From Antedon mediterranea (Eukaryota > Animalia > Echinodermata), in contig NC_092676.1 in the NCBI RefSeq assembly GCF_964355755.1, positions 8,409,888 to 8,473,887 on the forward strand: a stretch of 64,000 nucleotides of DNA, written 5' to 3'. Below the pieces are notes generated by a model. That model was not told the DNA's origin. It ran no database searches and saw only the letters and a program-made list of their open reading frames with translations. A program made the position numbers and the translations under genes. The number at the start of each line of letters is the position of its first letter. Within the stretch, counting starts at the first letter, position 1. Below are positions 3,001 to 58,900 of this stretch, one piece after another.

Positions 3001-6000
3001 TCCGTAACAAGATTGTACTTGAAATTCTTAGCAGACGAAGTATAATTCGATAATAAGTCCAATATCTTGTCACGATCTGTAATTCGATTCTTTATGAAAA
3101 ATGCATCTAAGTTATAACGTATAAATCTCTCAAATATCTAAATGCTAATTCTGATTTCATGTATGTCTCAATTTGTAAGCCTAGTCATCAATGGTAATAT
3201 CTATTTGCAGAAGCTGTGTCTGGCCGGCGATGATAAAAAAAAAAGTATAGGCCTAGGCCTAAAAAGTCATTTGCAAAACCACTAATTTGCCTAATTTAAA
3301 CTATTTAAAAATGGAATAACCATTCGCTTAAAGATGTATTGTCCTCCAAAAACATGAAAAATAAAGATTATTTAGATCAGACTTTGAATAGGTTATTTTG
3401 TAGTTTTAATAAAGTTATTCATTTCCGTAGAAAAAAAACCCTACAAAATAATGTTTTCACTTATAAAATAACACAAAAAATGGTTAAATTCAACCAAAAA
3501 TCCATTGGCTAGATGCCAATTTGACCACTTTTTGCTTTAACTTACAGTTTTTTCAAGTAGATAAAATTGTTTTTAGATCCAATTTTTTTGTCAAAGTGGA
3601 TAATTATTATGTGATATTAAAATGGCATATTAAAAAAAAAAACGTTGTAAACATTTTTTTTCAGGGGGACAATACATCTTTAAGTTTAAAACACCTTATT
3701 TTGATTTTACGACATTAAGAGATACTGTTAATAAAGTTCGTAGTAATCCAATATTTACTACATTAGTGTTAATATAACAATATGAATACACCGTGGAGCA
3801 TAGTGTCACAATGTCAACAACATAATATTATCAAAGTAACAACGGTAACGATAACTGTCTACATCAAACTTTATGTGACAAAAAAAATGTGATATGCCCA
3901 TATATGGACATGATGATGTCGTATAACTAAATTGGGCATATCACTACCATATTTGAGCATATAATTCAGCGCACATGGTTCAGCGCATGTGGTTTAGCGC
4001 ACATACTTCAGCGCGCATAATTTAGCGCACATGGTTCAGCGCACGCAATTCAGTGCAGATGGTTCAGAACACGTGGTTCAGTGACATGGTTCAGCGCACG
4101 TGGTTCAGCACACGTGTTTCAGCGCACATGGTTAAGCGCATGTGTTTCAGCGCACAGAGTTCAGCGCACGTGTTTCAGCGCACAGAGTTCAGCGCACGTG
4201 TTTCAGCGCACAGAGTTCAGCGCACGTGTTTCAGTGCACAGAGTTCATCGCACGTGTTTCAGCGCACAGAGTTCAGCGCACGTGTTTCAGCGCACAGAGT
4301 TTAGCGCACCTGTTTCAGTGCACGTGTTTCAGCGCACAGAGTTCAGCGCACATTACATTAATTGAAACAATACACAATCAATTTTTCTGAATGTTCTAAT
4401 ATGCAATTTATGTGCAAAAATATTTTTACATTCTAATTACAAAAAGAAAAAAAAAACGTTTTTTTAATTTAGAAAGCAATTATCATAAACAGTTTTCCTT
4501 CATCGATTTCATTTTTAACACACTGATTATATTTTTTGACTCATAGCCGGAACATAATAGTTCGTACATTGAAACACATCAGGCCCATTCGGGATCTGGT
4601 TTTATTTAAGGAGCGTATTTGTGTACGCAACAATACTTGAACCAGGGAAGAGTGAAATTAATGTCACTCTTCCCTGCTTGAACAAATATTTTGAACAACA
4701 CTTTTGCTGCAACAGATGATACGATCATAAAGCTTCATATATATTAAATATTTTCTTCTGTAGGTTTATCATTATTAAAAATAAATTATAATTGATACCT
4801 TTTAATCGTGTTGTATAGTATAATGTTTATTTCCAACATCAGTTTATATAACATAATATATTTTCTTGTCAATAAAATGAGGAAAGGAAGGAAACAAGTG
4901 GTTGAAAACTTATAGATCATCTCTCCTTTGTTTTAAATCATTGTGTACAATTAAGTTATGACGTAAGGCAATATATAATAAAGTTCAGAAAAGAAAAATT
5001 AACTTTACTTATACAACATTAAAAACAATTTTTTCTGTTTATACATTCGTTTGAACTCAACAAGAGATTTACATTTTTTTTAAAGCCACATCGAACGAAT
5101 TCCCGGAAAGGAAAGTAGGTTTAACCTCCTCTCAAATGTGCTGTGAGCAAGCAAGACAGATTGCTCTTCTATGGATTCTTCGAGTATTTCTTTTAAAAAA
5201 AACACAAAACAAAGGGTTCTCTAAATTAAGATATGTTGAAATAATATTCAAAGAGTTTACTAGTTTTAATATTAAGCTGGTGTTACTGTGCCTGAAGTAA
5301 CTGATATCTAAATATGGGAAAGCAATACGTCTGATGTGTACGTCAGTCTGGATGCCGCGTCAAAAAAGTTGGGAAACATTAATTACATTCTTTATAATAC
5401 TGTATATTCTATACACTATGGTGTACTTTAGTTTTGTAACTACAGGTATCATTGTGTTTGGAACGACAATCAAACTAACGATAGTGTAGGCGTTATGGCA
5501 AATGAAAAGACGAAATGGTATATTGCTGCCCACACGCATGATTTAAATGCAGTTTGAAATTTAACATTCTTTTTAGACACAAAAGAACCAACTAAACTAA
5601 ATTTTTAACAGACCAGCAAAAGCGATTGCACTCCCCATCATCCGCGAGTGAGTGGCCGAGCGGTTAAGATAGTGGAACCGTAATTACGTAGCCATAACAT
5701 CGGCAAGGGTTCGAGGCTCACTCGCTTCATGGTTCTGTTGGTAGAACGAGTCTTCTCGGATAAGGACTATACAACGTAGGTCCAATGTACACATGTGCAC
5801 TTTAAATAACCTAGTACATCTTTCGATACGAGTAGGGGGTTACTAGTCCACACACACAGCCACTGTCACACACAGCCACTGTGCAATTGGAACTGGACCG
5901 TTTTTAGAGGTGTTTACCACCTGTTGGTCCCGATCCTTCACTAACAGTGTTAGTGAGAAGTTAAGACCGTAAAGGTAGTAAAAACGTCATTTCCGATTTC

Positions 6001-15000: not shown

Positions 15001-18000
15001 CAGAAGTAGTACGGTAATACAAGTAGCCTACTAGTCTCTAAATATTAGCAGAGTTGCAGAAGGAGCAATGGAAGACAATGGTAAAAGTAGCTACAGAAGT
15101 AGTACGGTAATACAAGTAGCCAACTAGTCTCTAAATATTAGCAGAGTTGCCGTAGCAGCAATGGAAGACAATGGTAAAAGTAGCTACAGAAGTAGTAGGC
15201 CTACAGTAATACAAGCAGCCTACTAGCCTCTAAATATTAGCAGAGTTGCTGAAGCAGAAATTGAATACAATAGTAAAAGTAGCTAAGTAGCACGGTAATA
15301 CAAGCAGCCTACTAGCCTCCTTATAGCATGGTTGCTGAATCAGAAATTGAATACAATAGTAAAAGTAGCTACAGAAGTAGTAATTCAAATAGCATACGAG
15401 CCTCTAAATATTAGCAGAGTTGCAATGGAATGCAATAGTGAAAGTATAGCCACATAAATAGTAGTACAAATAGTCTACCAGTCAATAATAGAAATATTAG
15501 CACTCAGTTGATGAAGCAAATAGAACTATAATAAAATTATAACTGCATTTTGTTTATAGCCCATGAATAAAGGTCAGTATAAAAAGTCTTTTTGAACATT
15601 TCCAAAACTGTAACTAAACTGTCAGAATATTCTATATCTGTAATAAACTAATTATGTTGTTGAAATAAAATGGTATATTCTCTATAATTCTAGATGAAAT
15701 TAAACCCACAGATTGAGAAATTGGTTATTTCTTATTTAATTAAAAAAGACACGGTTTCGAGCAGAAAACGCCGATTTAAGGAAATATCTTATTATAGTAT
15801 TTAGTTTCAAGAGAAATATAAAAGCAATACGATGTGGAAATAATACTCAAAACTGTTTAAAAGGTTAAAATAGACAATAGTAAGAAATAAATATTAGATC
15901 ACGTGTTATTGAAACTTGATCACGTGTTATTCATATTGATTGGTTTATTCTAAAAGTGTAACTAACTCGATATTAAAAGGAAGCGGATTATTTACGAATT
16001 TTTTAATTTGTTTAAAAGATATGAAGCGATGTAATTTTAACTATATTCGATAGTTTGAGCAATTCAAATCACATTTTAAATTGACCTGTTTTGAAAGTTG
16101 GTTTTTTTTTGCATTTAGGCACATTTCCAAGGATTATGAATAGCGAATTCTTTCACTGTGTCAGGCGACAATCCATTCACAAAACAAACATACATACAGA
16201 ATGTCTAATTACAACTGATGTTGTATCAGCACCCGAATCTCTATTGTATCTCCACATTTCTGTCCAGTGTCATAGTCACAGCACAGTTACATCACATGTG
16301 TAGGCCTATCACACGTGGCCCCTGGCCACGTGTGATAGGCCTACACTATAGTTTCCCCTATGTTTCATAATTTTTGGGATTTTATTTGTGTTACACGAGC
16401 TTGTTGAAAATAAGCACTTTCATATCAGTGGGGGGATAGTTCAAATTACACAGTAAAATCTCTATTCTTTTGTACACAAATTTTGTAAATAGAGAGGCAT
16501 TTTAAAAGGCTATGAAAAATAAATGGTGTGGTAAAAAATGTTATCAGATGACCAAATATAGGTAATATAACTTGAATATTACATTTGTGATATTTTTATT
16601 CAACTTCAGATTTTTATTTTCATGCTATAGCAAAAATTATTCACCGTATATCCACCATCTTTTTTCACCGTCTAGGGAGTCACCAGACATGTTATTACAT
16701 TAAGTTAACTACCTAACTACTGAAAAAAAGTCTTCCTGGTTTTTATGGAAGAATTTTGCCAAATTTTGTATTTGACCATATTAAGGGAAATTCATGTTTT
16801 TTCGTCTCGATTTCTGTTACAAATATTTCATTAATGTACAATTAACCAAATATTATATTTAAAATTCATGCCTGTACCTGAGCTTTAAAGTTAGTGCTAA
16901 GACCTGATACAGACTGCACATGTGATACGTATATGTGACACTGTATTACCAAATGTGTTTATGATACTGGAAAAATAAATAATACAGTACCGAGAATCAA
17001 CTAGAAACAGCAGCTACAAGTACTCATTATTGCTTTTCGTATATTAAAAAAAAAATTCCTGTGGTATGTTTGAAACTTTTTAGACACGCTTAATAATAGA
17101 AGCGTTCCATCAAATTTTGTAATTATCGTTTTCTTTTCAGAGGAGATTAAAAACCTGTCGAAGGATCGTTACATTTTAGAATACCAAATTTGTGAACGTC
17201 ACTGCCAAAGTAAACACTTAATTCACCACCTGTTAATCTCTGATGTAACTTAGAATATTACAGAACCTGAGGCCAGCAAATGTCATAAGAGACGGCGAAA
17301 ACGAACACTTGATTGCAAAAGGCACACAGTAGTCAATAGCTTATAGATCGACTACAAATATAAGCGTATCTGCGACGTATATATAGAATCATCACGTTGT
17401 GTGATCAATCTCCGCGTGTAAATAGATTAAATTATTAGCGTAGACATATGAAATTCGACAAGAAATATCCGATAATTTGACATAACGTAAGGCAATGGCT
17501 TAGAAAAGGTAAACGAATTATACAGTACCCTAATTCATATATGTCAGACATTTTTTAATCACTCATAATCACTAAAAATGAATTATTAATGATAAATTAA
17601 TCAATATTTCGACCAAGAAAAATCGGAATGATTACAATTTATTTTTTTGTAATGTCGTCTGAACCCGTTAGCGATGATATTTCAGTTTGTTAAATACTTG
17701 TTTCAGCTTTTGACATATGTCCCAATTAAACCTGTGATATTTGAATTGTATTGCAATTACTGAACCATTTATTTCGCAGCTTTAAATGTTGAATTAGATT
17801 TCCTGCTTTTCTCGAGGAGAGAAAAAAAAACTCAATACAAACATCACATCAATTCGTAACCGTTTTAGTTTCGCCACCGTCTTATGAAATTAGTGAAGAC
17901 CTTTCAAATAATGATGTCGCCATTATTGAAAAAGAAAAATCAAATTTAAACAAATCCAATTTTACAAGATAATTTCCAGTTCATACAATCTTAATACGAT

Positions 18001-21000
18001 TCTATTCTATTATCTATATAGATATATATAGGTTGGAACCAGTCAACCAAGATGTGTGAAGGGTAGATATCTGGAGGTCATCGGTTCGAATCATTACTTC
18101 ATATTTGGCAAAATATCTGAACTTATTAAGTATGAACTGGAAATCATCTTGTACAATTGGATTATTTAAATTTGATTTTTCTTTTTCAATAATGGCGACA
18201 TCGTTATTTGAAAGGTCTTCACTAATTTCATAAGACGGTGTAAAACTAGAATTATTGTTACACAATTATCAGAAACATATTTTAAAGAGAAAATCTGTAT
18301 CATCTTAAATTGCAAAATAGGTTAAATCTAAACAATAAAATTATATTTTGTTACAATAATAGCGCCATCCATAAGAAATTATAGCCGATTCATTGTATGG
18401 CTTAAGTTACAATTTCATTTTTTCATTCGTAATTCTAGTTTAACATTACCTGTACCATACAAGAAAACAAAGCTATGCTTTCAGGAGAAAATTATATTTA
18501 TAATTTATTTCAACTAAAATTACTAAAATTATAAATTTTGACCAAAAACCAAACAAATTAACTACAAAAGTGTCCTGTCGAAGTATGTCCCGCCAATTTT
18601 AACAAATAATTCGAAAAAAAGCAATTTTACCCCCAAAATAAAAAAAATTATAATCGAAAACTATGTTAGATATTTTTTGATAATGTACTTTTGAAATATA
18701 TGCATTGGAAAATAAAATACTACATAAACTCTTGTAATGAAAAACAAAAACACGCTTTGGTCAATTGTTCAAAGGCTTTGGTAGATGAGCCCTTTTCTCA
18801 AAGTAGGGCAGTATATGTTTCCTTACATGCGAATAAAAAGATTTTGAGCATCTTTTTATGACAGAACTTATATCACATAGATTTATACTTAGACCACAGT
18901 AGCATGAACCTTTAAAAGACATTGGAGTTTTATCAGCAGAAATAGGATAAAAACCAATTTGAAGATTGTCCTCTAAGCGTGGCAGAACTATCCATCAAAT
19001 GGTAATTGTCTGCAAAATTAACAGCAGACAATATAAAACAAAAACAAACTGTTCCGATAGATTGATACTTAGACCACAGTAGCTTATTAGAAGAATTTTG
19101 GAAAGAGTTTTGTAAAAAAAAGCAAAATAAAAACCAATTTGTAAATTGTTTTGAGCGTGACATAAAGTCAATAGAACTATCCATCAAATGGTCAATGTCT
19201 GCAAAATTAAAAGCAGACAATAACAAATTGTCCGGGTGCCACTTCCTGAATGAGTAAGCAGTATTACGGTAATTTAGCAAACCAACGCCTGTACTCCCGG
19301 ATAAATGACGTCATTTATTATGTGACGTTTGAAATCTCATAAAAACCAATATTTGAGATGTTTTCATTCGATGAATCAAATCATTGTTTCATTAAATTCA
19401 CTTAACATTGAAACTCAATTACTACTATATTGTCAATATTAATATAAGTATCTATTCATGCTCAGGTTATTTATATACATTTTGTTTGGATAATGTGAAT
19501 TGGAAAGCGACATAATTGTGGGCTCCTCCTTCTCCTGTGTCATTTAATAGGTTTCATCAACATCATCATGTCTATATTTATCCATTAGTAAGTTTCGTAA
19601 TTCTTCATAGAAATCTGTGATCAATAGTTGTCCTGCATTCATCATAATCATCATAAAACGTCCTCATCCTTATTATTTTAAGTATCTATATATAAATTAT
19701 GCTTAATTCTGACATAGGCGGGCACAATGGAAAACTTCGGGAAAGATCTTCGCCTTGGATACTTATCTCATCTATCTTAGATGTACTGCGAAACGTAGAC
19801 TTAATTACAGTAGTTCTCACTATTACGGTATTGTTCCATATTTATCTCTAAAGCTTGGTTCCCACTAGCGACGCAACGCAAGGACGTAAAGCTTGGTTCC
19901 CACTAGAACGTAACGCAAGGACGTAAACGCAACGCAAGCGTTTTAACAAATGACAAGCGAAGTTATAGACAGTAAAGCTTGGTTCCCACTAGAACGTAAC
20001 GCAAGGACGTAAACGCAACGCAAGCGTTTTAACCAATGACAAGCGATGTTATAGACAGTTAGCAATCACAAGCGAATAAGCCATCGCTTGTGATTGGTCA
20101 ATTCACTTGCGTTGCGTTACGTCCTTGCGTTGCGTCGCTAGTGGGAACCACGCTTAACGCAACGCAAGTGAATTGACCAATCACAAGCGATGGCTTATTC
20201 GCTTGTGATTGCTAACTGTCTATAACTTCGCTTGTCATTGGTTAAAACGCTTGCGTTGCGTTTACGTCCTTGCGTTACGTTCTAGTGGGAACCAAGCTTT
20301 AGGAAGATGTCGTGGAGGGTTTTAAAACGAAATGTTGGGGTTTCATCGGTAGATTTTTAAGCGGTCGGTCAGCGGTAAAGTTAGTTCCAGGTTCACGGTG
20401 AGTCTTTTTACCCGAGTCATTATCATTCCGAGAACCATCGTCTACACTTCCTAGAGGGGGTTTATAATAAACATACTATCATAAACTAAAAACTGAATGA
20501 CGTCATTTTACAAATACAATTTACTAATCTCAATGTCGTAGCTTAATGTAGTTTGCCCAATCATTACAAATGGAATTTAATCATAATCAATGTCCTAGTG
20601 TTAATAATCATTATCTTGATTACTGTCGTAATCTCTATCAATATTTTATTACTAATTTCAGTAGGCTACGAGGAACGTATTCTCATCGGTAAAAATGTGC
20701 AGCTACTATAAAGACATGGAGTTTTTGTAGCTCAATGATTAATACATCTTACTCATGGTAACACTTTGACAGGGAGCCCGAATGAAGATGTATAGGGTCT
20801 AATTAAGAATTTAATTTCCAATAAAACATGATCTTATCTTCTTATCTTATTCACATCCAATTATATACTCCACCTTTCAACCTATTTGTTATAAAAAAAA
20901 TCTAGCACAGTAGACTTTTGTATCTAATACACCGATTTGTAAAATGATCATGATTATACGAATAACTTATTGTAACTACTTCTAATTGGTCAAACTGAAA

Positions 21001-24000: not shown

Positions 24001-27000
24001 AATCATTTTCAGTGAAGTGTTTGTTTTGATTTTATATATATAAATCTCAAATACTAAACAAGATAGGACAATCTATTTTACATAAAACGTCTCAACACAA
24101 ATAATGATCTAGGAAATTCACTGACAATATACAATATCGATAAATTCAGCAATATTTTTCAAATTGTTTTCTTACCTTATATATCAAATCTATTTCATTT
24201 ATTGTCAAGTTAACTGATATGTTAAGCAATGTAATCTTTAAAACGAGTTTAAGTTATGACTTTAATCGTGTACGTTAATCGGTTCTTCAGTTACAAGTTT
24301 TTAATCGTATAACTTTTATTCGTAAATTCATGATTTTAATAGTGTTAATCTGTTTGAATTATGCGGTCTCCATGGCAATCTAACGAATAACGAGGTTGTT
24401 AGTGGACGCGAGATGTTAACAATTGCTATTATCGCGATCAGGTTTTTGGAAAATTATGTGTTTATTGCGACGCGATGACGATTAGTGCAACGTTAGTAAG
24501 TTGACCAATCACAACACAGTTCGGTTTGATTGTTCGTCGTGATTGGTCAACTCACTTGCGTTACGTGTGCGTTTTTTCATTGCGTCTTCGTGAATTATGT
24601 AAGGTTTATAATGTCTATTTACTATTAACCTTTTTGCATAATATGGTTGTACGGAAATAATAATTATTACTAAGAACTTAGGCCTAATTAATTTCGAATT
24701 TATTGACCATTGTTGAATTCAATAGGAATGATTTTAACAAAAAACAAACCTTTTTTAGAAACAGAAGGCTTAATGGTATTTTCGAAACATTAAGTTAAAA
24801 TGCCGTGGCTCGTATTACGTCAAACCGTCTATAGTAACCATTGTAGTGCTTTATTTATTGGATTGACTTATAGACGTAATGTAGAAATTAAATCCCAAGT
24901 CCCAAGTCTAATCAAATAAGGTCTCTTGGATCTATTTATATCAGTAAATATATAAAGGATTCGGGTTATTGTTTTATTGTGTCAAAATAAAAGATTATTT
25001 GTGTAAGAAAACAAACCTATTATTATTGAATTACTAATTTGGTATACAGTGTATTTGATATTCGTAGTAAAACAAGAAGAGGAAGGAAAAGGCTATGCTT
25101 GATAGATTAAAAAAATAAAAAATATATTTGGAACTAAAAGATAGAAAGAAGACTGTCATGGACCTGGCAAATGGCAGATGAAAAGGACGGTAGGTAGCTG
25201 CTATACACAACGTCATATGTGACACTGTATCCTGTAAAAAAGTTAATATGTTCTTACAGAACTAGAATCTTAAAAAGACTATGTACTTCACTACCGTACC
25301 TGATACACTGCGGTATCAGGGCTAGAGACGTTAAACAATCTGACAGCATTTTCCATCCGTTGTATACTGTAGAAAGGCCCATTTACACTAGGACGATAAC
25401 GATCGACGATAAATAGACAAATGTGCATTTTTCATACATAAAACAAAAGAAATATAAACACTTTCCATTCTAGAAATATAGAATAACCATTTATGCTTCC
25501 TTTGATGAAAATGACATTTACACACGTCCAATAAAATGACGTCATGATTAGTAAGAGCAATAATATCGTGACAATACAACGATTTTATTGTTTTTATTTA
25601 TCATGACGTCATTTGATTGGAATTTAAAAAATATTATTTTTATCAAAGACAGCAGATATGATTATCCTATATTTCTAGAACGAAAAGCTTTCTAAATTAT
25701 TTTGTTTTATGTAAAAAGATTCATGTTTATATATTTATCGTCCATCGTTATCGTCCTAGTGTAAATGGGCCTTTAGACTAAAGTTATGGATTGGATGCTA
25801 TGGTATGCGCCTGTTGCTGTCAGCAGACTACATGGTGTTTCACGTCGCTAGACGTGATACCGTAAGAGAACGGACCGAAATATATCCATTAGTCATGTTT
25901 TAATAATAAACTAAGATACGTCTGACTTTTTATCGAATACCGTCTTGATTGCAAAACAATAAAATGACACTTTCAATCAGTTAAGATCCTCAATCAAGTG
26001 TGAGCATTGTTTCACTTTGAATCGGAAAAGAACAATTTTATGTGTAAACACGTTTAGTAACAACATTAATATATATGCGATTTGTGTTAATTTTCTCTAC
26101 TTGAGTTTTGTATATTTAGCTTTTAAAATGGTTTGCAATTATTACGAAGCGTGGACGGCGTTTAATCATTCACTGGCAATCAACGGGATTTAATTACTCC
26201 TGACACTGTTCTTGCAAATTCTAGTAAATTTAATTGAAAAATCTTAATAGATTTTTTTTAAACATCGCGTAATTACATATGGCTTACTCATACATTCTTA
26301 CACATTTCCACGAACGTTGATATAAGAAATTAATGTATGATTATATTTTTAGCTGCATAAAGAGTGAGAACAAATAGAAATACATGTATAATGCAACATG
26401 TTGTCTTGACCAAACGAACAACTTATAAATGTCTTTATTGATGGCAACTACACCGAGATAATTTTTCCCATCAGTGGTTTGGAAATCTACAGGCGGATCT
26501 AAGGCTAGTCAAACACCCTCCATTATTACTCCTTCCTCCCCCTCCTGCATCCCAATTTCGAAATTTACAAAGATACGGTAGGATATTGGTTGAGTTCAGC
26601 ATTTTTTAAACAATTGTTTTCAAAATCAAGGATACGTCACTGCTACGGAGTTGTAACTCTCCTGTCTAATGATTGGTTGCCATTAGAAACGCACCACAAG
26701 GACGTAACGCATCGAAAATGAGTTGACCAATCACAAGCGATGGATTATTCGAACTGTCGCTTGTTATTGGTCAACACGCTTGCGTTGCGCTTACGTTCTA
26801 GTGGGAACCAAGCTTAAATATTATAACATAATGTATAACGTTTGAATATGCGGAAAACCACATTCTCTTTACTGATTAAATGGGTGTGTGCACGTCGTAA
26901 ATAATAAACATAATAACACTATTTTGCTTTACTTGGTACGCTTGTAATGCCGTGTATGCACCATCTCCTTAAGACCTGTTCACACAAATTGTCAAGGTCA

Positions 27001-37980: not shown

Positions 37981-38483
37981 TCCTGACTAATCATTGTTAC
38001 TCTTTCGTTAAAGTAGGTTTCTTATTTATCTTTAAAAACATTTATCATATGGGAAGGGATACCGGTGATTAATAATGAATAGGCCTAGGCTAAGCTAGCC
38101 TAGCTAGGCTAGGCCTAGCTAGTAGTAGTAGGCCTAGTACGGTAGATCTCTCACCGTCCTAGCTAGGTAGGTAGGCGCCCGGGCCTACTAGTAGTATAGG
38201 CTAGGCCCTGTTAGGCGTGGCTAACCTAATAGGCTACCTACTAGCTAGTTAAAGTAAGGGCAGGCTGTACATACTTATTAGGCTTAGTAGGGAAGCAGGC
38301 AGATATAATTATAAGCCTTATGTGGGCTACAGTTGTTATCCCTCCAGGCTTCACAGATACACATATTAGTAATTACTTAATTTAATTCTTGGCTTCAATT
38401 GCATTTTTAAATTATTTCCTTTTTATTTCCACACAACTATTTTTAGATTTTCAATCTTGTTATATTCACTACCACATTATAAG

Positions 38484-41400
38484 ATGCCAAAACGAGAAGC
38501 AACTAACGAGCTGACTGATCGCAATTGGGATCAGGAAGATGAACCTGAAGAGGTAATTAAAATAACAAAATCATTTAATCAAGTGGAACCTCTCCTTTGG
38601 GAAACTTCTGTTAAGGGGACGCTTTCCTGTGAAAAATTAACAATAAGAAGGCCTGGCAATAATAATATACAGTGTGTTTTAACACTACGGCCAACCCCTC
38701 AATTATGAAACCCTTAAAATGATACATATATATACATTACACTACTATGTGTATGTGGTTCTGAAAGGAACTGTTGGGCTTCTTAATATTTATGCTTTGT
38801 TTGTCCTCAATAGTCCAGAAAATGGGGACACTCACAAGTAAGTTGGGTGGGTCTATGTGTGAAAACTAAAAGTATGGCAACAACAATAGTGGGAAAGGGA
38901 ATTAAAATTAGCTATATTAGCATTGTTTCTCATGGACAAAAAAAATGATAATTCATTAAAGTTTGCTTTTATCAGAGTCTGTTACAAATAATAACATAAG
39001 CCTCTGTCTATACTAGTCTATCATTCAAACTAGACAGCAAGTGTCGTGTGCCCAAATATGGTAGTGATGTGCCCTAATTTCGTAGTGATATGACGTCGTG
39101 TCCATATCACATCATATATTTTATCAAGTTGGATAGTGTGGACAGAGCTTAAGCATTTTAATTTCCATTTTTCTTTTATGTAGGCTGGTACCTTTCAAAA
39201 AGCAAATGTCGAGGATATTCAAAAACGTGTGATTAAGAAGGCAAGAAGAAAAGTAGCTGGGGCAAATGAGGTGAGAATCCTGATGTTAGTGACATCTACT
39301 AACAGTTATATGATGCAGAAGGCCATGGTTTAGCACTCCTAAAGGGCCTAAGAGACGCTGGATAGTTGCATTGGACTGCTCTGTGCCCTGGGTTTAGTCA
39401 TTTAGCGCTCGTAGCACTCCTAAAGGGCCTAAGAGACGCTGGATAGTTGCATTGGACTGCTCTGTGGCCCTGGCTTTAGCCATTAAGTGCTCATGGCCGT
39501 TACTGCCTACTAATGGTACTATCTGATTGCATTTATTCATATATATATATTCTTTTGAGGTGAGCAAGTGCGATCATTCACCTAACACACTCTTAAACTG
39601 CCCTTATGTGTGCGATTTAAAACACACTTAACTTAAAACTTCTAAGTTCTACACACCAAAATATAAACAGCACACCTACTCACCCCTGAATATATATTGA
39701 GGAGTGCAATTTGTATTTTCAAAAGACAAGGCCTGAATCCCATTGACAAAGTATACCCTCTGTTTGTTTTTAAGCCTAGTGTTTATTTCTTACTCAGTTT
39801 TAGATACTTGTTTGGAGCAATTTTTAATATTCCAGTAAATCTTGCCACAAAACCCAGTATAAAACTGATAATTACAAAAGACAAAAACTGATAATTACAA
39901 AAGACAAAAACTAGATAGTTAGTAGTGTGATGAATACATACAGTATATGAAGATAAATAATAATTAATATACATTAATTTATTTTAGGAAAGTACCGGAA
40001 CAGCGTTCAGGGCTTTCAAAGGTTTTTCAGGTTTTGGAAGTACATCTACATCAGCCCGTCCATCGCCCATGTTTAGCTCGTCAAATCCAAACGGTGATGG
40101 TAAACCTGCAGCTTCACCATTCAGCTTTAAACCCCAAACAAGTAAGCCTGCTGATTCCAAGACGTCTACAGGTAGTACCACACTTGAAACTAAATCATCC
40201 AATGGAAACCACACCACTGAATACTCAACACAGCTGAAAAGTTTAAACAAATGTGTCTTGGAATGGATTCAAAAACATATAAATCAGAATCCATTATGTG
40301 ACCTGTCTCCGATTTTTGAAGATTATAAAAAACACCTTTCAGACATTGAGAAAAACTCTAGTAAAACCGAAATTGAAGTTTCTAAAACGCCAGCCATTTC
40401 GCAGGAAACAACGGTTAAACCGAGTCCGCCGCAACAACCAGGATTCTCTGGGTTTTCATTTAATCCGGCTACCACGGAAAGTAAAACAGTGTCGTCAGCG
40501 TTTCCTGGATTAGGTAATAAAGATAACAATTCAACCGTGGGCTTATTTGGTAAAGTAGGTTCTACTGGTGGGTTTACTTTTGGACAAGGAGCAACTGAAA
40601 CAAAACCCATTGCATTTGGAACAGCAGCCAATAAAGGTGGGTTGCTTTACATATTGTATTATCATAGTGTAACATCAGGCCTTTTCTTTTGAGGTGAGTG
40701 AGTGCGATCACTCACCTAACACACTCCTAATCTGACCTTGAGGAGTGCGATTTACAACACACTTGAATTTGGTAAACTTCTACACACCAAAAAACAAAAA
40801 AGGCGCACCTACAGCACCCCTGAATATATTAAGGAGTGCAATTTGTAGCACACCTACAATTTCAAAAAGACAAGGCCTGTAACATATGATCGTATCGTGG
40901 TAGTAATCAATCACACTGAGTCTTGAAATCCGGCTTTAAACACAACACTGTATTGGGTTGTTCCAACATAACACAATCTGAAACATCAGTCTCTCCATCC
41001 TCAACACCCACAAGGTTTGAGCCCTATAGAGTCACATTCACTTACAGAGTTAGTTTTTAATGGTACAAGGCACCGTAGATATGTAATGATTTCAAAGAAA
41101 CAATCTGGCCCAGTTATGATCCAGACATCACTTGTATATGTGTCACTTGTTGTCTGTCTGTCTACTGTGACATATATCCTTGGGAAATCTCAGTTCATAT
41201 AGTAATCAATTGTTGATGTTTAGTTATTTTTGTTTTATCAATGTATACAATTTGTTTAACATTTTTCTGTGCAGAAGAAGACAAATATGAACCACCAAAG
41301 GCCGAGGTTAGGGAAATTAAAGAAAAAGATGCATTGTTTACTATCAGGTATATTCATTCTTTCAATGATTGAATGATACTTATTTTTTAACCATTGTGAT

Positions 41401-52900: not shown

Positions 52901-55900
52901 ATATTGTCCCCCTAACAATTTTTTTTAAATATACCATTTTAATGTCACATAATAGTTATTCACCTCTGATCTGGAAAAAAAAATTTACCTAAAAATACAG
53001 TAATTTAACGCAAAAAATGTCAATGTATTTAGTCTTTATAAGTGAAATCATTTTGTGTCCCATTTTTTTTTATTTGGAAGTGAATAACTTTGTGACAACT
53101 GCAAAAGGGTCTACGGTATTATTAAAGTCTGATTTTATAAGTCTATTTTCATAATTGTAGGGGACAATACTGTATCTTTAAGGTTTAAGTGGAGACTGCT
53201 ATCCAATTTGTATTGGAACATTCCATGCTCCTACTACAGTTATAGTTAGCAATCATTTCTACTTTAAACCACTAGAAACCCCTGAATTAAATTAATTTAA
53301 GCCTGAAAATCTTTCATTAAATTCACAACGTATCTGCCAAGAGAGAAATTGTATGAACTGTTAGTTTTATGATTTAATCCAATATTGATTTTAAATGTTC
53401 TGATGAAATACATGACCATTGAAAAGTAAATTTTTACAAGTTTCCTTTTATTGAGTGTGTGTGCTTAACTACAGTTTTTTCTGCTTTCTGTTTTTACTGT
53501 ATACAATAATAAAATTGTTATTACATGTCAGTCTTTATTTGATCTTATTTTAATCTTAGGAATTGCAATTAACAACTAAATCCTATTACTTGCTTGTATA
53601 AGAACATTGGTAATAATCTATTACGCGAGTACACGGAGTAACGATACGAGAAAATTATTTATCAAGGAGAATAAACTATCTAATTATGAGTTTACTTAAA
53701 CTACAGTATTCTATCCCCTTCTACAGTACGGTACTTATTAAATGGCTTTGTGACACAGTGCCATGGTAATTGTAAAATCATTCAAGCATGACAAGAACAA
53801 CAACCACCCAAAAGTATATCAAACCATGATAAAACCTTACTGTATACGGACAAAGAACAGCATCGTTATTATTGATTAGACTGTTTCTATGTAAAATGTT
53901 TTTCAAGTGTTTTCACCCAAAAATGTTTCTTTAGTCTATCTGTTATTATATTGAACTGTAGTGTTATGTTTAATTAGAATAGAAGTTCTTTGTTTATTTA
54001 ATTAAATCTTTAGTATTAGTATAAATTAACTGGCACAGAACAAATTTTAAATTGCTTATTGATATACTGAAAATTAATTAATTGATTTAGAAACCAGAGT
54101 TTGGTATCCACTCTTCCAGGCTGGTAATTAGTTTTTAGAAGGTTTATTCAATGTCCAATTTTTTGTTTTAGTAGTTTGTTAATTTATTTGAATAAATTAA
54201 ATTTAACATTCTCTTGAAATATTTTTCTTTAATATCTAAAAAAAAAAAAATGTTTGTGAAATAAAAAAAAAGTATTCTAGTATACATATTTACCATATTT
54301 TTTCCAAGGTTATAAGTAATGTGTACTGTATTATTAAATAACAATATAATGACTAAAATTTATGCTGCGGTACGAATTGATTATATCATAATAGTATGTC
54401 TGAAATAATTTAATTCAGAAAGGGACTATAAACATCATTTTCACAATAATAACAAAATAGAATTATTTTTCTGTAACTACAAACACCCATTTTGCAACTA
54501 CACCTTGCACTTCTAACTTGATCCCTTAAATTTTGTTTTCTTATAATATTGTATAGCAATTATAAACTTCTGACATGATCCCTTAATTGAAAGATGCAGA
54601 AATGGAATTGTGGGTAGTGTAATTGGGAGTTTATAATAATTAATAATCTCTTGTTAAACTTAAGAGGGAGTTTATTTTAACTCGGGTGATGATTTTAAGT
54701 TGTTTTTATTATCGTTATAGAAATGGGTTGTTCAGGATTTGCGGAACGAGCTTGTCAAACATGAGGAAGCTGTGGTTGGTGTGAGTAGTTTATTAAAGAA
54801 TTAATAATTGATGTATAAATAAATAATTTGATGTATATGAAATAACACTTTGATATCCATTATGTAGATGAGTTTTAATTAAATGTGATTTATTTTACAA
54901 ATGATGGAATATTTATGAACACAGCTGTTCGGATCCCATGATGCATAGCAATTGAAAATGAAAGAAAAACTTTTGTTGTTAAGCAATGAAATTCAAAGAT
55001 TTTTTATTTACAGTTCTAGATAAAGGTCATGTTTCGTCATTATTTTAAAATACCTCATTAAATTTTTCGAAAGTGAATTTCTTGTAATATTAATAATTAT
55101 CTATAACATACTGTAAGTTTTTTTATAAAATAAAAATAACTAGGTATAGCCTGAGGAAATTATAAACCATTTTTCTAGGCTACCAACATTTCTATTTATG
55201 AAATATGTATGTAGAAATGTATCATATTCAGATGTATTGCCGGACTTGATTAACTTTCGGCCTCTGGCTCCTAATTTTTGATAAACATTATATTGTAGTG
55301 TAAATTAAGCAATTATGATTTTTTTTAAATCTAAGCAAAAAATATATCTGAAATTATAAGCATGATAAATATATTTGGATAAATTATTAATGAATTACAA
55401 ATAAATAAAAGTAAAAAATTAAGAAATTGTTAACATTTTTTATAGAAAAAAAAAACTTGATACCAATACATCACATAGTACCCTGTCATTTTTGTACTTA
55501 GGCAAATGAGGACTTCATTTCCTTGTTACATAATGATATTGAAAGTTATCATACCAGGGAGTTGTTATTAGATGGAGTAACAACAAATTTATCAACTGAT
55601 CTACAGCCAATAAGCGACGAGCGGTATACAGGAACCTCAAAGGATTATGCAGTCAACTGGCACTAATTTCCTGCCTTTTGTTTGGAGTCTACTTTGCCGA
55701 CGATGCCAGGCCCTCTATCGCCGGGATTCGTCCATTTTGAGTAAAGACTTTCGATGCATTCCTGACAAACAAACATTGTAGGCATGCGCAGATGATTCCT
55801 TCTTCGTCTATAGCTTTACAATTTGTTTACGTCATTAGAGAATTCTGCAATATATATTTTACAAAAAACCGCTTTAAATTCCGACCTTTCGTTAAAAAGT

Positions 55901-58900
55901 TACGATAATTCAAAGTGTACGTTCATCTGTTTGTTTGTAGACCTTCTTTCGTGATTTTCAGAGACTTTTGGTAAGTTTTAAAGTTAATATTTGATATTTT
56001 CCGCACGTTTCTCCATTTTAACACCAGCGCTAATATTTAAAAGAGTATGTCTTCTATCATTCTCTTGATATCTTATTTTCTTACAGTTTCTTACATAATC
56101 GTAATTTTGGTTAAAATACAACATGTTTTTATAGGTGTGGGCATGTTGTCAGTAGTGATAAACGCCAGCGTGTAATCTGGGTAATTAACACCCTCCGATC
56201 GTATGTTTGTTGGCGGCTGGAATCGCCGATTCTGGTGATGCACTAGGTACACCACCAGGGCCTAGGCCTAGCCAGGGAGATGGTCTAATAACAAATCCCT
56301 GGCCTAGCCCTCTCCCATAAATAGGCCTAGGCCCCTGCACGTATGCTAGGCGGGGAATTACCTATATAACTAAGCATAGCCTATAGAATAGGCCTATATA
56401 ATTATAGGATGTCCACTATAAATAATAATTAATATTAATACAATTCTATGACTATATATGAATGTACTGACTGTAATTTATTTTGTTGTCTTCCTGTTAT
56501 TCATTATAGGAATTTGTACTGTAATAATGGAAATACAGGCTATTTGTCGTTTATGTGGGCGAGAGACTGCTGCATCTGACTCAAGACGTCTAATTTTGAA
56601 ATCTGATTATTCAGATTTAATCCAGCGTGCACTACAAGTAGATGTGAACACGGATATTCTCCCACCATACAGTTGTAACAACTGTAGAGTAAAACTTGAC
56701 ACATGGAAGAAGAATATGCGCTCTAAAAAGAAGGATGTAAAAATTGGAATAAACCTTGCTGATTTTGATTCCAGTGAAAAACAGACAGAAGAATCTTTTT
56801 TCTGTGAGGCAGCAGTAGTTGCATTGCATCTCAAATGGGATACATTCTTTGGAAAGGAGAAGACAAACACATGTTTACAAACATTGTTATTTGTACATGA
56901 TTGTACATGTATTTATTTTTAAATATGTATTCAATACAAAGAATTAAAAAATGACTCAGTATATCGATTATTTTTATTTACAGTATATCATTCATTAAAA
57001 GCCTTGGTTACATTTAGATATACAGTACTGTTCAGTACTTGATTTTTCTTCTGCACTGTAGCCCCTTTCTTCTTTGTCTGTGCAGGGAGTTCCCTGGTCT
57101 GTGCAGGAACATCTTTGTCTAGAATTGAAAAAAAAAACAATTAACATAACTCCCTGGTCATACATTTAATCAGGCGTTGTCAATTTAACTCCCGGCATTT
57201 GTTAACAAATGAAAAATACATAAATCTTCCCAATTGTCAGTAGTGACAGCCCAGGTCATAATTAATAAATGGAAATAATACTGCATCATCAGAAAGTTGT
57301 TTTTATTGGGGTAGGCCTAGCCCCTACTTGACCGTCCCTCCCTTCCTTCCTGATGAAATATTAAAGTTCAATGAATAAATACCTGTAAAAAAAAGGCAAC
57401 GTAAAAGGCCTCCTTTCTTTCCTAGAGATTCTAGCTAGGAACGGTAGGCTGCAGTAGTATCAAATATTGAATAGGCTACACCAGTTACTAACCTGTTTCT
57501 TGAGTAGTAGTACTACTACTAGGTCGCTTAACACTAGGCCTACTTGAGCCAGGCCTATGCCCAATATTATTAACGTCGTGTTGTTGACAGCATTGCTCAC
57601 AAACCCATTTGCCAGCTGGAACTTCAGAAGATGTGAGCAGTGAGCTTCACACATTCAAAATGGAACCATTCATTAGGACATGCTTTTCCTTCACAAGCGA
57701 TCATTTGATCGTCAGAACTTTCCCCACATGGGCAATACATTGGCACATTTTCATTTAGATCAACATCTTCTAAATCGCTATCATCGAAATCTAAATCGGA
57801 AAAGTCTACGTACATCGCATCGGTATAGAAGTCGTCAGTTGTCATTGTGTGTCGCGATTCGATTGTATCATCTGGCTTTCTGAAACACCATGACGATGTG
57901 TGACGTAGGCCAGAGTTATTCAAGCGAAGCGAAGCAACTTTGACTTTTCTGCGCATGCGCGTGTCATTGATTACGTCAGGGAAAATTGTTTATTTGATGA
58001 GGAACTGTTTATCGGGGATTAAGTCTTATCTATTTTACTTCCTGTCGGAAAAGTAGACTGATCAAAAGAACATACTATGATGTTACTCCATCTAATAACA
58101 ACTCCCTGATCATACTATAGCTTCCTGTTCATGTGCAAGTTTAACCCCAGAGCTCCACTCTCCCTTTTCCTCAAAATTGTTTAAGAAATTGATGTGCTAT
58201 TTGTACTAGTGATTACCTTCCCATTACTTTCAGGATATATATAAAATTGCTATGAGTTCTACTCTACTACAGTATTCCTATGTTGCATTTACAGTATTTA
58301 AGAAATTATGTAATTCATATTAAATCAGAATTATATAAAGTGGATGATTGAAACAGCAGTGTTTACGCACTCACATCACTGTACTCGTCAACTGGGTGTA
58401 ACATGCTTATAATAAAAGCAGTCAAATATGTAGTCCATACTTATTTTTACAGAAAATGGGAACTCAAACTGTGAATAATTCTAGGCCATTAACGTCCAGG
58501 AGTAATAATCAACAACACAAAGCACAGGTGCCAAAGTTATCATCAGGTAAAGTATAATGATAATAACATTTCATGTGCAAGACAAAAAAAATCCAATTAT
58601 TTTCATTTATATTTTAGGATCATGTGTAAATTATTCTATCGCAGTCATTTCTTTAACTACATTTTGTACTGTAATTACGTATAATTTAAAAAAAATGTTT
58701 ATTCAGGTATAAAAGATTTACAAAAATAGTCTGAAGATATTGTATTACAAAGATTGAAACATTAAAAATGACAAATCAAAGGAAGACAAATTCACAGAAA
58801 AACTACAAAAAAAATGTAAACATACAGAAAGGCATATAAAAAAACCCATTAAAAGCAACAGTATTCCAAGGTTATTAGATTACTTGTACCTTTTCCACAT

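Follow-up and report, generated by a model that had tools for sequence, protein, structure and literature searches.

A 64,000-nucleotide stretch of the genome of the echinoderm Antedon mediterranea (NCBI RefSeq assembly GCF_964355755.1, contig NC_092676.1, positions 8,409,888 to 8,473,887 of the forward strand; hereafter the window) carries a 2,554-nt transposon at positions 55555–58108, with one gene on the plus strand and a second gene running toward it on the minus strand. We consider it probable that this element is an internally deleted, multicopy and recent transposon with two broken convergent genes, derived from a two-gene P element in which a RAG1-type zinc finger replaces the THAP domain and the second gene (gene 2) is predicted to join an ING-type PHD finger to a split-off C-terminal domain (CTD) of the P transposase. 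The resemblance to the RAG1/RAG2 pair reflects a shared module in the plus-strand gene and, probably, a parallel invention in gene 2.

Element ends, insertion site and copy status

The terminal inverted repeats (TIRs) of the element match perfectly over exactly 28 nt, start with CAGGG and are of the CA..TG type. When duplication lengths of 2–11 nt were compared on both flanks, a match was found at 7 nt only, giving the target-site duplication (TSD) ATCATAC. These are the ends that a preliminary description, made from the letters alone, had read from this locus and had used to place it in the P superfamily, where TSDs measure 7–8 nt; that placement also agrees with the P-type RNase H domain found among relatives (below). 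RAGL and Transib TIRs start with CAC. Two motifs are shared between the ends, AGTCTACTTT (55686–55695 and 58050–58059) and GCATGCGCAGA (55782–55792 and 57948–57958), at 132 versus 50 nt and 228 versus 151 nt from the respective termini; these asymmetrically spaced pairs are candidate sites for transposase binding.

The window holds a single copy. Read evidence came from four runs of 16, all in the form of contigs: X1, possibly the source sample; X5, which we guess to be RNA; X6, from organism B; and X12, from another organism. Depth in X1 is 342–778 in bins of the element and 14–19 in unique flank bins, and because depth does not equal copy number, this result means many copies only; the element is multicopy. 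A joint that skips 2561 nt, corresponding to the element and one TSD copy, is present in two of the four runs, with a depth of 8.6 and a short side of 24 nt in X1 and as a 676-nt contig with a shorter side of 220 nt in X12. Because this empty site is seen in X1 and X12, the insertion is young and its site is probably still polymorphic. Recent mobility had been proposed from the identical TIRs and intact TSD, together with a presence/absence comparison among individuals, and the empty site in X1 and in the run of another organism agrees with it. A chance repeat was rejected, as the element is multicopy and its empty site is seen.

Protein similarity stops at position 56877, an X12 contig carries 588 other letters between 56872 and 56884, and the X1 contigs break at 56876/56904. 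Because the other letters of X12 fall where protein similarity ends, the segment 56872–56904 is likely the junction of an internal deletion, as the preliminary description had supposed, with the transposase core and the third exon of gene 2 gone. The window copy also has two 5-nt tandem duplications (57813–57822 and 57855–57864) that the X1 and X5 main contigs lack; X6 covers only the 57813 site and lacks the duplication there. A contig of organism B over window positions 56541–57850 is near-identical, spliced and spans both genes; this form could represent a close relative, a transfer or contamination.

The plus-strand gene and its relatives

A splice joint on the plus strand (55971–56509) is seen in X5 and not in X1, and the gene is broken in the window copy, where it stops after about 115 codons. 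The protein of its open reading frame (ORF) opens with a finger whose ligands are C7, C10, C50 and C53. This finger corresponds to ZFa of the NZD/Chapa domain (two CxxC pairs and a helical core, here with CRLC and CNNC conserved), and ZFb (an N-terminal His and His-CxxC) is absent from it and from locus L008, described below. ZFa-only NZD forms are reported to occur in some RAG1L proteins (bioRxiv 10.64898/2026.01.24.700457). The match of the ORF to Pfam zf-AD is weak (E 1.7e-4), and the N-terminus gave no THAP match, with zf-AD- and RAG1_imp_bd-like similarity in its place.

The identity of the family comes from its relatives. A phmmer search with the plus-strand protein returned 19 matches (E 7e-8 to 9e-4), and the named sources, looked up for 11, are crinoids, a sea star, a sea cucumber and an acorn worm. 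Five of the 19 contain an RNase H domain of the P-element type, two of them together with the GTP-binding insertion, and nine match RAG1_imp_bd, five of them above the family cut-off. None of the 19 matches the RAG1-core, Transib, Chapaev-core or THAP families; a Chapaev or Transib core was accordingly rejected, the cores found being P-type. A 14-row profile of relatives finds the Drosophila P transposase (6p5a) at E 1.8e-10, and a 23-row profile finds the solved RAG1 NZD (21wb) at E 6.4e-8. The Atlas model of residues 1–110 of one relative, P0019, matches RAG1 models at TM 0.72–0.78 and, at TM 0.85, a cluster of 59 P-transposase members. The full two-zinc type I Chapa/NZD ligand set (N-terminal His, two CxxC, His-CxxC) occurs in 10 of the 23 aligned rows and is complete in the P transposases P0002, P0019, L001 and L026. 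The suggestion that a RAG1-N-like zinc domain sits here in place of THAP is upheld, as is the idea of module sharing with the RAG system, the NZD being common to P relatives, RAG1 and Chapaev.

A metagenome locus scan, seeded with five full-length rows because the 14-row alignment was too loose as a seed, yielded 64 loci with an NZD finger in three, a THAP domain in six (counted from a single-seed search) and a PHD finger in one; the RNase H core with GTP-binding insertion is also found in L001 and L008. Scans of viral genomes (89 stretches) and prokaryote genomes (83 stretches) returned nothing. Word-index searches found the plus-strand ORF in none of 67 candidates among longer proteins, and residues 1–300 of P0019 matched only P0019 itself among 1154. 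In a tree of 39 rows (34 of the 64 loci and five proteins, excluding rows with fewer than 190 core residues; midpoint root, no outgroup), all eight NZD-bearing rows and one 5'-truncated row form one clade with support of 100/98. Because the NZD rows form one clade, a single swap of THAP for this finger would be the simplest reading of the tree. Four further P transposases (L012, L016, L018 and L022), with a clade shared, have basic, low-complexity N-termini in which neither THAP nor NZD was found.

This coherent clade of P transposases with a RAG1 NZD contradicts statements that Chapaev alone shares the domain. PMC4411706 (2015) describes the Chapa domain as present in no other known transposon and as retained, outside RAG1 and RAG1L, by Chapaev only. 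In the parts consulted, bioRxiv 10.64898/2026.01.24.700457 (2026) names Chapaev as the only other NZD lineage and mentions neither P nor THAP; its supplementary table may list such P proteins unrecognised. We found no publication on NZD-bearing or two-gene P elements in a search that lay outside Repbase, Dfam and most subscription journals, and a Repbase or Dfam entry for the family may exist.

The short form could itself be functional, with the spliced 131-residue zinc-finger protein repressing the intact element in the manner of KP. Deleted Drosophila P elements are reported to encode repressors such as KP (PMC7776569), ZAD-like fingers are reported to dimerise (bioRxiv 10.64898/2026.01.24.700457), and X5 covers the plus-strand gene well, in spliced form. 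However, X5 is guessed to be RNA and the activity is putative, and we regard such a role as unlikely. It would in any case add to the origin from a deleted two-gene P element and not replace it.

The convergent second gene

On the minus strand, an acidic tract (10 D/E among the first 26 residues) is followed by a PHD finger, and a splice joint (57119–57492) is seen in X5 and X6 and not in X1. Splice joints on both strands, each in X5, agree with the two convergent intron-containing genes of the preliminary description, which had also recognized the acidic tract and the finger. The finger is frameshifted: seven extra bases near 57633–57645 split it, so that a stop closes the first half and the last W-x-CxxC motif lies in another frame, and at this site the main contigs of X1, X5 and X6 do not differ from the window. 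The splice keeps the frame that follows the frameshift open. The seven extra bases equal a TSD in length and may be the scar that a nearly complete excision of the same family left behind.

The PHD finger of the window is closest to ING proteins (E 2e-10), and that of L008 is likewise ING-type (E 5e-13). The RAG2 PHD was not among 46 PDB matches (E ≤ 1) for the half PHD finger of the window. Retained in the finger are a Tyr, a Met and a Trp, at positions that we take to be those of the methyl-lysine-binding cage of ING proteins.

What gene 2 might once have looked like is suggested by L008, one of the three NZD loci and the only PHD locus among the 64, in which an NZD-type P transposase on the plus strand is met by a convergent PHD exon on the minus strand. 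By predicted splicing, its gene 2 has three exons, of which the first encodes the PHD finger, the second is short and lysine-rich and the last is long; two phase-1 introns join them in frame into 456 residues. Common to L008 and gene 2 of the window are the phase (1) of the first intron and a basic second exon starting with D-K, and the NZD-type fingers of the two plus-strand genes are 28% identical. TIRs were looked for at L008 and not found, and the window copy has no trace of the third exon. A one-off capture of a PHD gene was rejected, as the same pair occurs in L008.

The third exon of L008 is modeled as all-helical (pLDDT 73.5, pTM 0.49), and the top match of this model among 48,161 chains is 6p5a_B, the CTD of Drosophila P transposase (Z 9.0, root-mean-square deviation (rmsd) 4.3, 110 of 118 residues, 18% identity), with the next-best chain at Z 6.8. 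No informative Pfam family was found for this domain, the ESM Atlas gave weak helical-repeat rows only, and a homologue search found four homologues, two of which are the query loci themselves. Twenty loci are informative, having a nearly complete core with 600 nt or more downstream of it; in 17 of these a profile of the third exon detects a convergent ORF, the exceptions being L001, L035 and L048. The profile has no match under E 0.03 on the transposase strand, and complete transposase cores end about 55–76 residues past the last catalytic motif. Two genes in convergent arrangement are a feature of the wider P clade. Its second gene starts with a PHD finger, with a C2H2 finger (L005 and L017) or with no finger that we found. 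L005 (218–5657) is a complete two-gene THAP P element with a 35-nt TIR and a 7-nt TSD, and its convergent second gene has an acidic ORF ahead of the C2H2 finger and a CTD-like domain.

The preliminary description had regarded gene 2 as a RAG2-like chromatin-reader gene. The pairing with a separate PHD gene stands and recurs in L008, but a RAG2 analogue that is solely a chromatin reader is not supported: the PHD finger is ING-type, it and the acidic tract lie at the N-terminus of gene 2 and not at its C-terminus, and gene 2 of L008 runs on into a domain modeled with a P-CTD-like fold and gave no Pfam kelch match. Because of the ING-type finger, the P-CTD-like fold modeled for the end domain and the lack of a detected kelch propeller, RAG2 homology was rejected, and a split-off P domain to which a reader is attached explains gene 2 better than a RAG2 counterpart does. 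A derivative of ProtoRAG, RAGL or Chapaev, with a RAG1-like gene facing a RAG2-like gene, would account for the convergent layout, the NZD/Chapa finger and a weak Pfam RAG2_PHD match of the minus-strand ORF (E 0.032). We nevertheless find this origin very improbable, given a TSD of 7 rather than 5 nt, the length reported for Transib, CAG rather than CAC ends, the lack of a RAG1 or Transib core in all 19 relatives, the ING-type finger, and a gene 2 in L008 that is all-helical by model and without kelch repeats.

A different possibility is that a host ING-like gene was the source of the PHD exons, which would then be a captured passenger, apart from the CTD protein and with no role in transposition. 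The nearness to ING proteins speaks for a passenger, as do the presence of PHD in one locus only and the spread of the family with a broken finger in the covering runs. Against it, L008, with so divergent a finger, shares with the window the PHD exon, the intron of phase 1 and the basic exon, and these read in frame into a CTD-like exon; other clade members head gene 2 with a C2H2 finger, preceded in L005 by an acidic ORF; and the window splice leaves the frame open past the frameshift. A passenger is, in our view, quite unlikely.

Several observations weigh against the proposed descent from an NZD- and PHD-bearing two-gene P element. The main weakness is that the combination of NZD and PHD rests on the deleted family of the window and on one longer locus, 1 of 64, that has no visible ends and whose splice joints are predictions. 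No full-length copy was seen, so that for the core and CTD exon of the parent we rely on relatives at 28–45% identity, and in 14 of the 19 relatives no catalytic domain is seen within their length. The PHD finger is frameshifted in all three covering runs, with no intact PHD seen in the family. The CTD match, at Z 9.0, falls below the value of about 13 deemed safe for helical bundles and comes from a model with a pTM of 0.49; the third-exon domain has no Foldseek match and no PDB match by sequence profile. The window finger is without the second zinc site, and the folds closest to its model are those of insect ZAD domains (Z 6.5, rmsd 2.9, 64 aligned); 21wb was absent from the results of both fold searches with this finger, the libraries of which may not contain it.

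Proposed mechanism, known systems and excision footprints

We predict that the parent element encoded two proteins. The first would comprise the finger, a coiled-coil region, an HTH (helix-turn-helix) and an RNase H domain with a GTP-binding insertion, and would end 60–76 residues past the last catalytic motif; the second would comprise the acidic tract, PHD finger, basic signal, helical domain and CTD. The CTD of Drosophila P transposase is reported to contact both transposon and target DNA (PMC7776569), and protein 2 could for that reason supply a DNA-contacting CTD in trans and so complete the transpososome. Together the two proteins would make a P-type staggered cut of about 17 nt and insert the element with a 7-nt duplication. 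The PHD finger, as a putative reader of methylated H3K4, would sit near target chromatin and could bias the complex toward open chromatin. With its middle lost and its PHD dead, the window copy could not move itself and would have to be mobilised in trans by an intact copy at another genomic site, none of which was seen.

By its ends and relatives, the element most likely belongs to the P superfamily, although it does not fit the canonical one-gene P/THAP9, RAGL/Transib or Chapaev types. It is like Drosophila P and THAP9 (6p5a; PMC7776569) in its CA..TG TIRs of about 30 nt, its TSD class of 7–8 nt, the HTH, RNase H domain and GTP-binding insertion of its relatives, footprints that would fit a staggered cut of about 17 nt, and the existence of internally deleted, non-autonomous copies. 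It differs in the NZD/Chapa finger where THAP sits, in a TSD of 7 rather than 8 nt (the Drosophila P value in PMC7776569), and in transposases that end soon past the core, with a CTD-like domain on a separate, convergent, PHD-headed gene. Convergent genes, an NZD on the catalytic gene and an acidic tract beside a PHD finger are shared with RAG1/RAG2, ProtoRAG and RAGL (PMC7204232, PMC4411706), whereas the relatives' core is that of P and not Transib, no RING was found, and a P-CTD-like domain is predicted where RAG2 has its kelch propeller. The type I Chapa/NZD ligand pattern recalls Chapaev (PMC4411706, PMC8355894, bioRxiv 10.64898/2026.01.24.700457), from which the P-type catalytic core sets the relatives apart. 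N-RAG-TP, too, is a short element, one reduced to a RAG1-N-like gene. KolobokP and Kol0 (PMC9587614) also pair a DDE transposase with a gene that lies downstream on the opposite strand and have lineage-specific accessory modules, but they belong to another superfamily, and their accessory proteins are nucleases, helicases and KolX rather than a split-off transposase domain.

The origin and function of the RAG1 NZD are an open question, and the P clade, in which the domain occupies the position where THAP binds transposon ends, offers a system for testing its job. Gene 2 suggests a two-protein P transpososome with a histone reader on the subunit that touches the target; such a reader would parallel the PHD of RAG2 without kinship and could provide a route to testing or engineering insertion-site preference. 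It is conceivable, and we propose it tentatively, that a widespread P lineage independently built a RAG-like design in which an NZD-headed transposase works with an obligatory convergent subunit carrying an H3K4me-reading PHD and a DNA-contacting tail. If so, the NZD would have a third home in P elements, which would be a possible donor or recipient of the RAG1 N-terminus as well as a living model of PHD-guided transposition.

Two excision footprints inside the element carry its own TIR type and have a separate 7-nt TSD each (Table 1), compared with none in 2000 Markov simulations of the element. Among the joints listed, at least 11 are of the footprint type (one of another kind was dropped, and three more lie beyond those listed), and nine of the 11 keep 15–19 nt of both ends; the joints have short sides and may stem from related families. 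Drosophila P is reported to be cut 17 nt inside its TIR (PMC7776569), and by analogy about 17 nt per end would be expected to remain after end-joining of P-type cuts. Footprints that keep about 17 nt per end fit P-type cutting; our literature search found no publication on P excision footprints. A third footprint in the window, at 4643–4676 (4636–4683 with flanks), is a 34-nt, perfect-type one with 17+17 nt of another CAGGG-ended family between copies of CTTGAAC, and judging from its letters another P-like family, likewise with a TSD of 7 nt, was excised there.

Table 1. Features of the element and its insertion site, in window coordinates
Feature	Position	Strand	Basis
Left TSD, ATCATAC, 7 nt	55548..55554	.	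Flank comparison and empty-site joint
Left TIR, 28 nt, CAGGG start	55555..55582	+	End comparison
5' leader intron of transposase-derived gene, GT..AG	55971..56509	+	X5 splice joint, depth 379
Footprint in leader intron: 29 nt (56273–56301), about 11 nt from the left TIR plus 18 nt from the right TIR, flanked by GCCTAGC copies	56266..56308	.
131-codon ORF, P-type transposase N-terminus with single-zinc (ZFa/ZAD-like) NZD/Chapa finger	56527..56922	+	Protein searches
Likely internal deletion junction (transposase core and gene 2 third exon gone)	56872..56904	.	Similarity end, X12 and X1 contigs
Gene 2 exon 2, short, lysine-rich, D-K start after phase-1 intron as in L008	56988..57118	-	Contigs and comparison
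Footprint in gene 2 exon 2: 14 nt of TIR ends (57083–57096) between GTCTGTG copies; +21 nt, in frame	57076..57103	.
Gene 2 intron, GT..AG on minus strand	57119..57492	-	Splice joint in X5 and X6
Gene 2 exon 1, coding part: acidic tract and ING-type PHD, frameshifted	57493..57815	-	Protein searches
Right TIR, 28 nt	58081..58108	-	End comparison
Right TSD, ATCATAC	58109..58115	.	Flank comparison

Elsewhere in the window, exons at 38373–40692, about 15 kb from the element, resemble those of a Nup50 nucleoporin gene. Two short elements with perfect inverted ends, at 17875–18240 (56 nt) and 25373–25774 (31 nt), are probably miniature inverted-repeat transposable elements.

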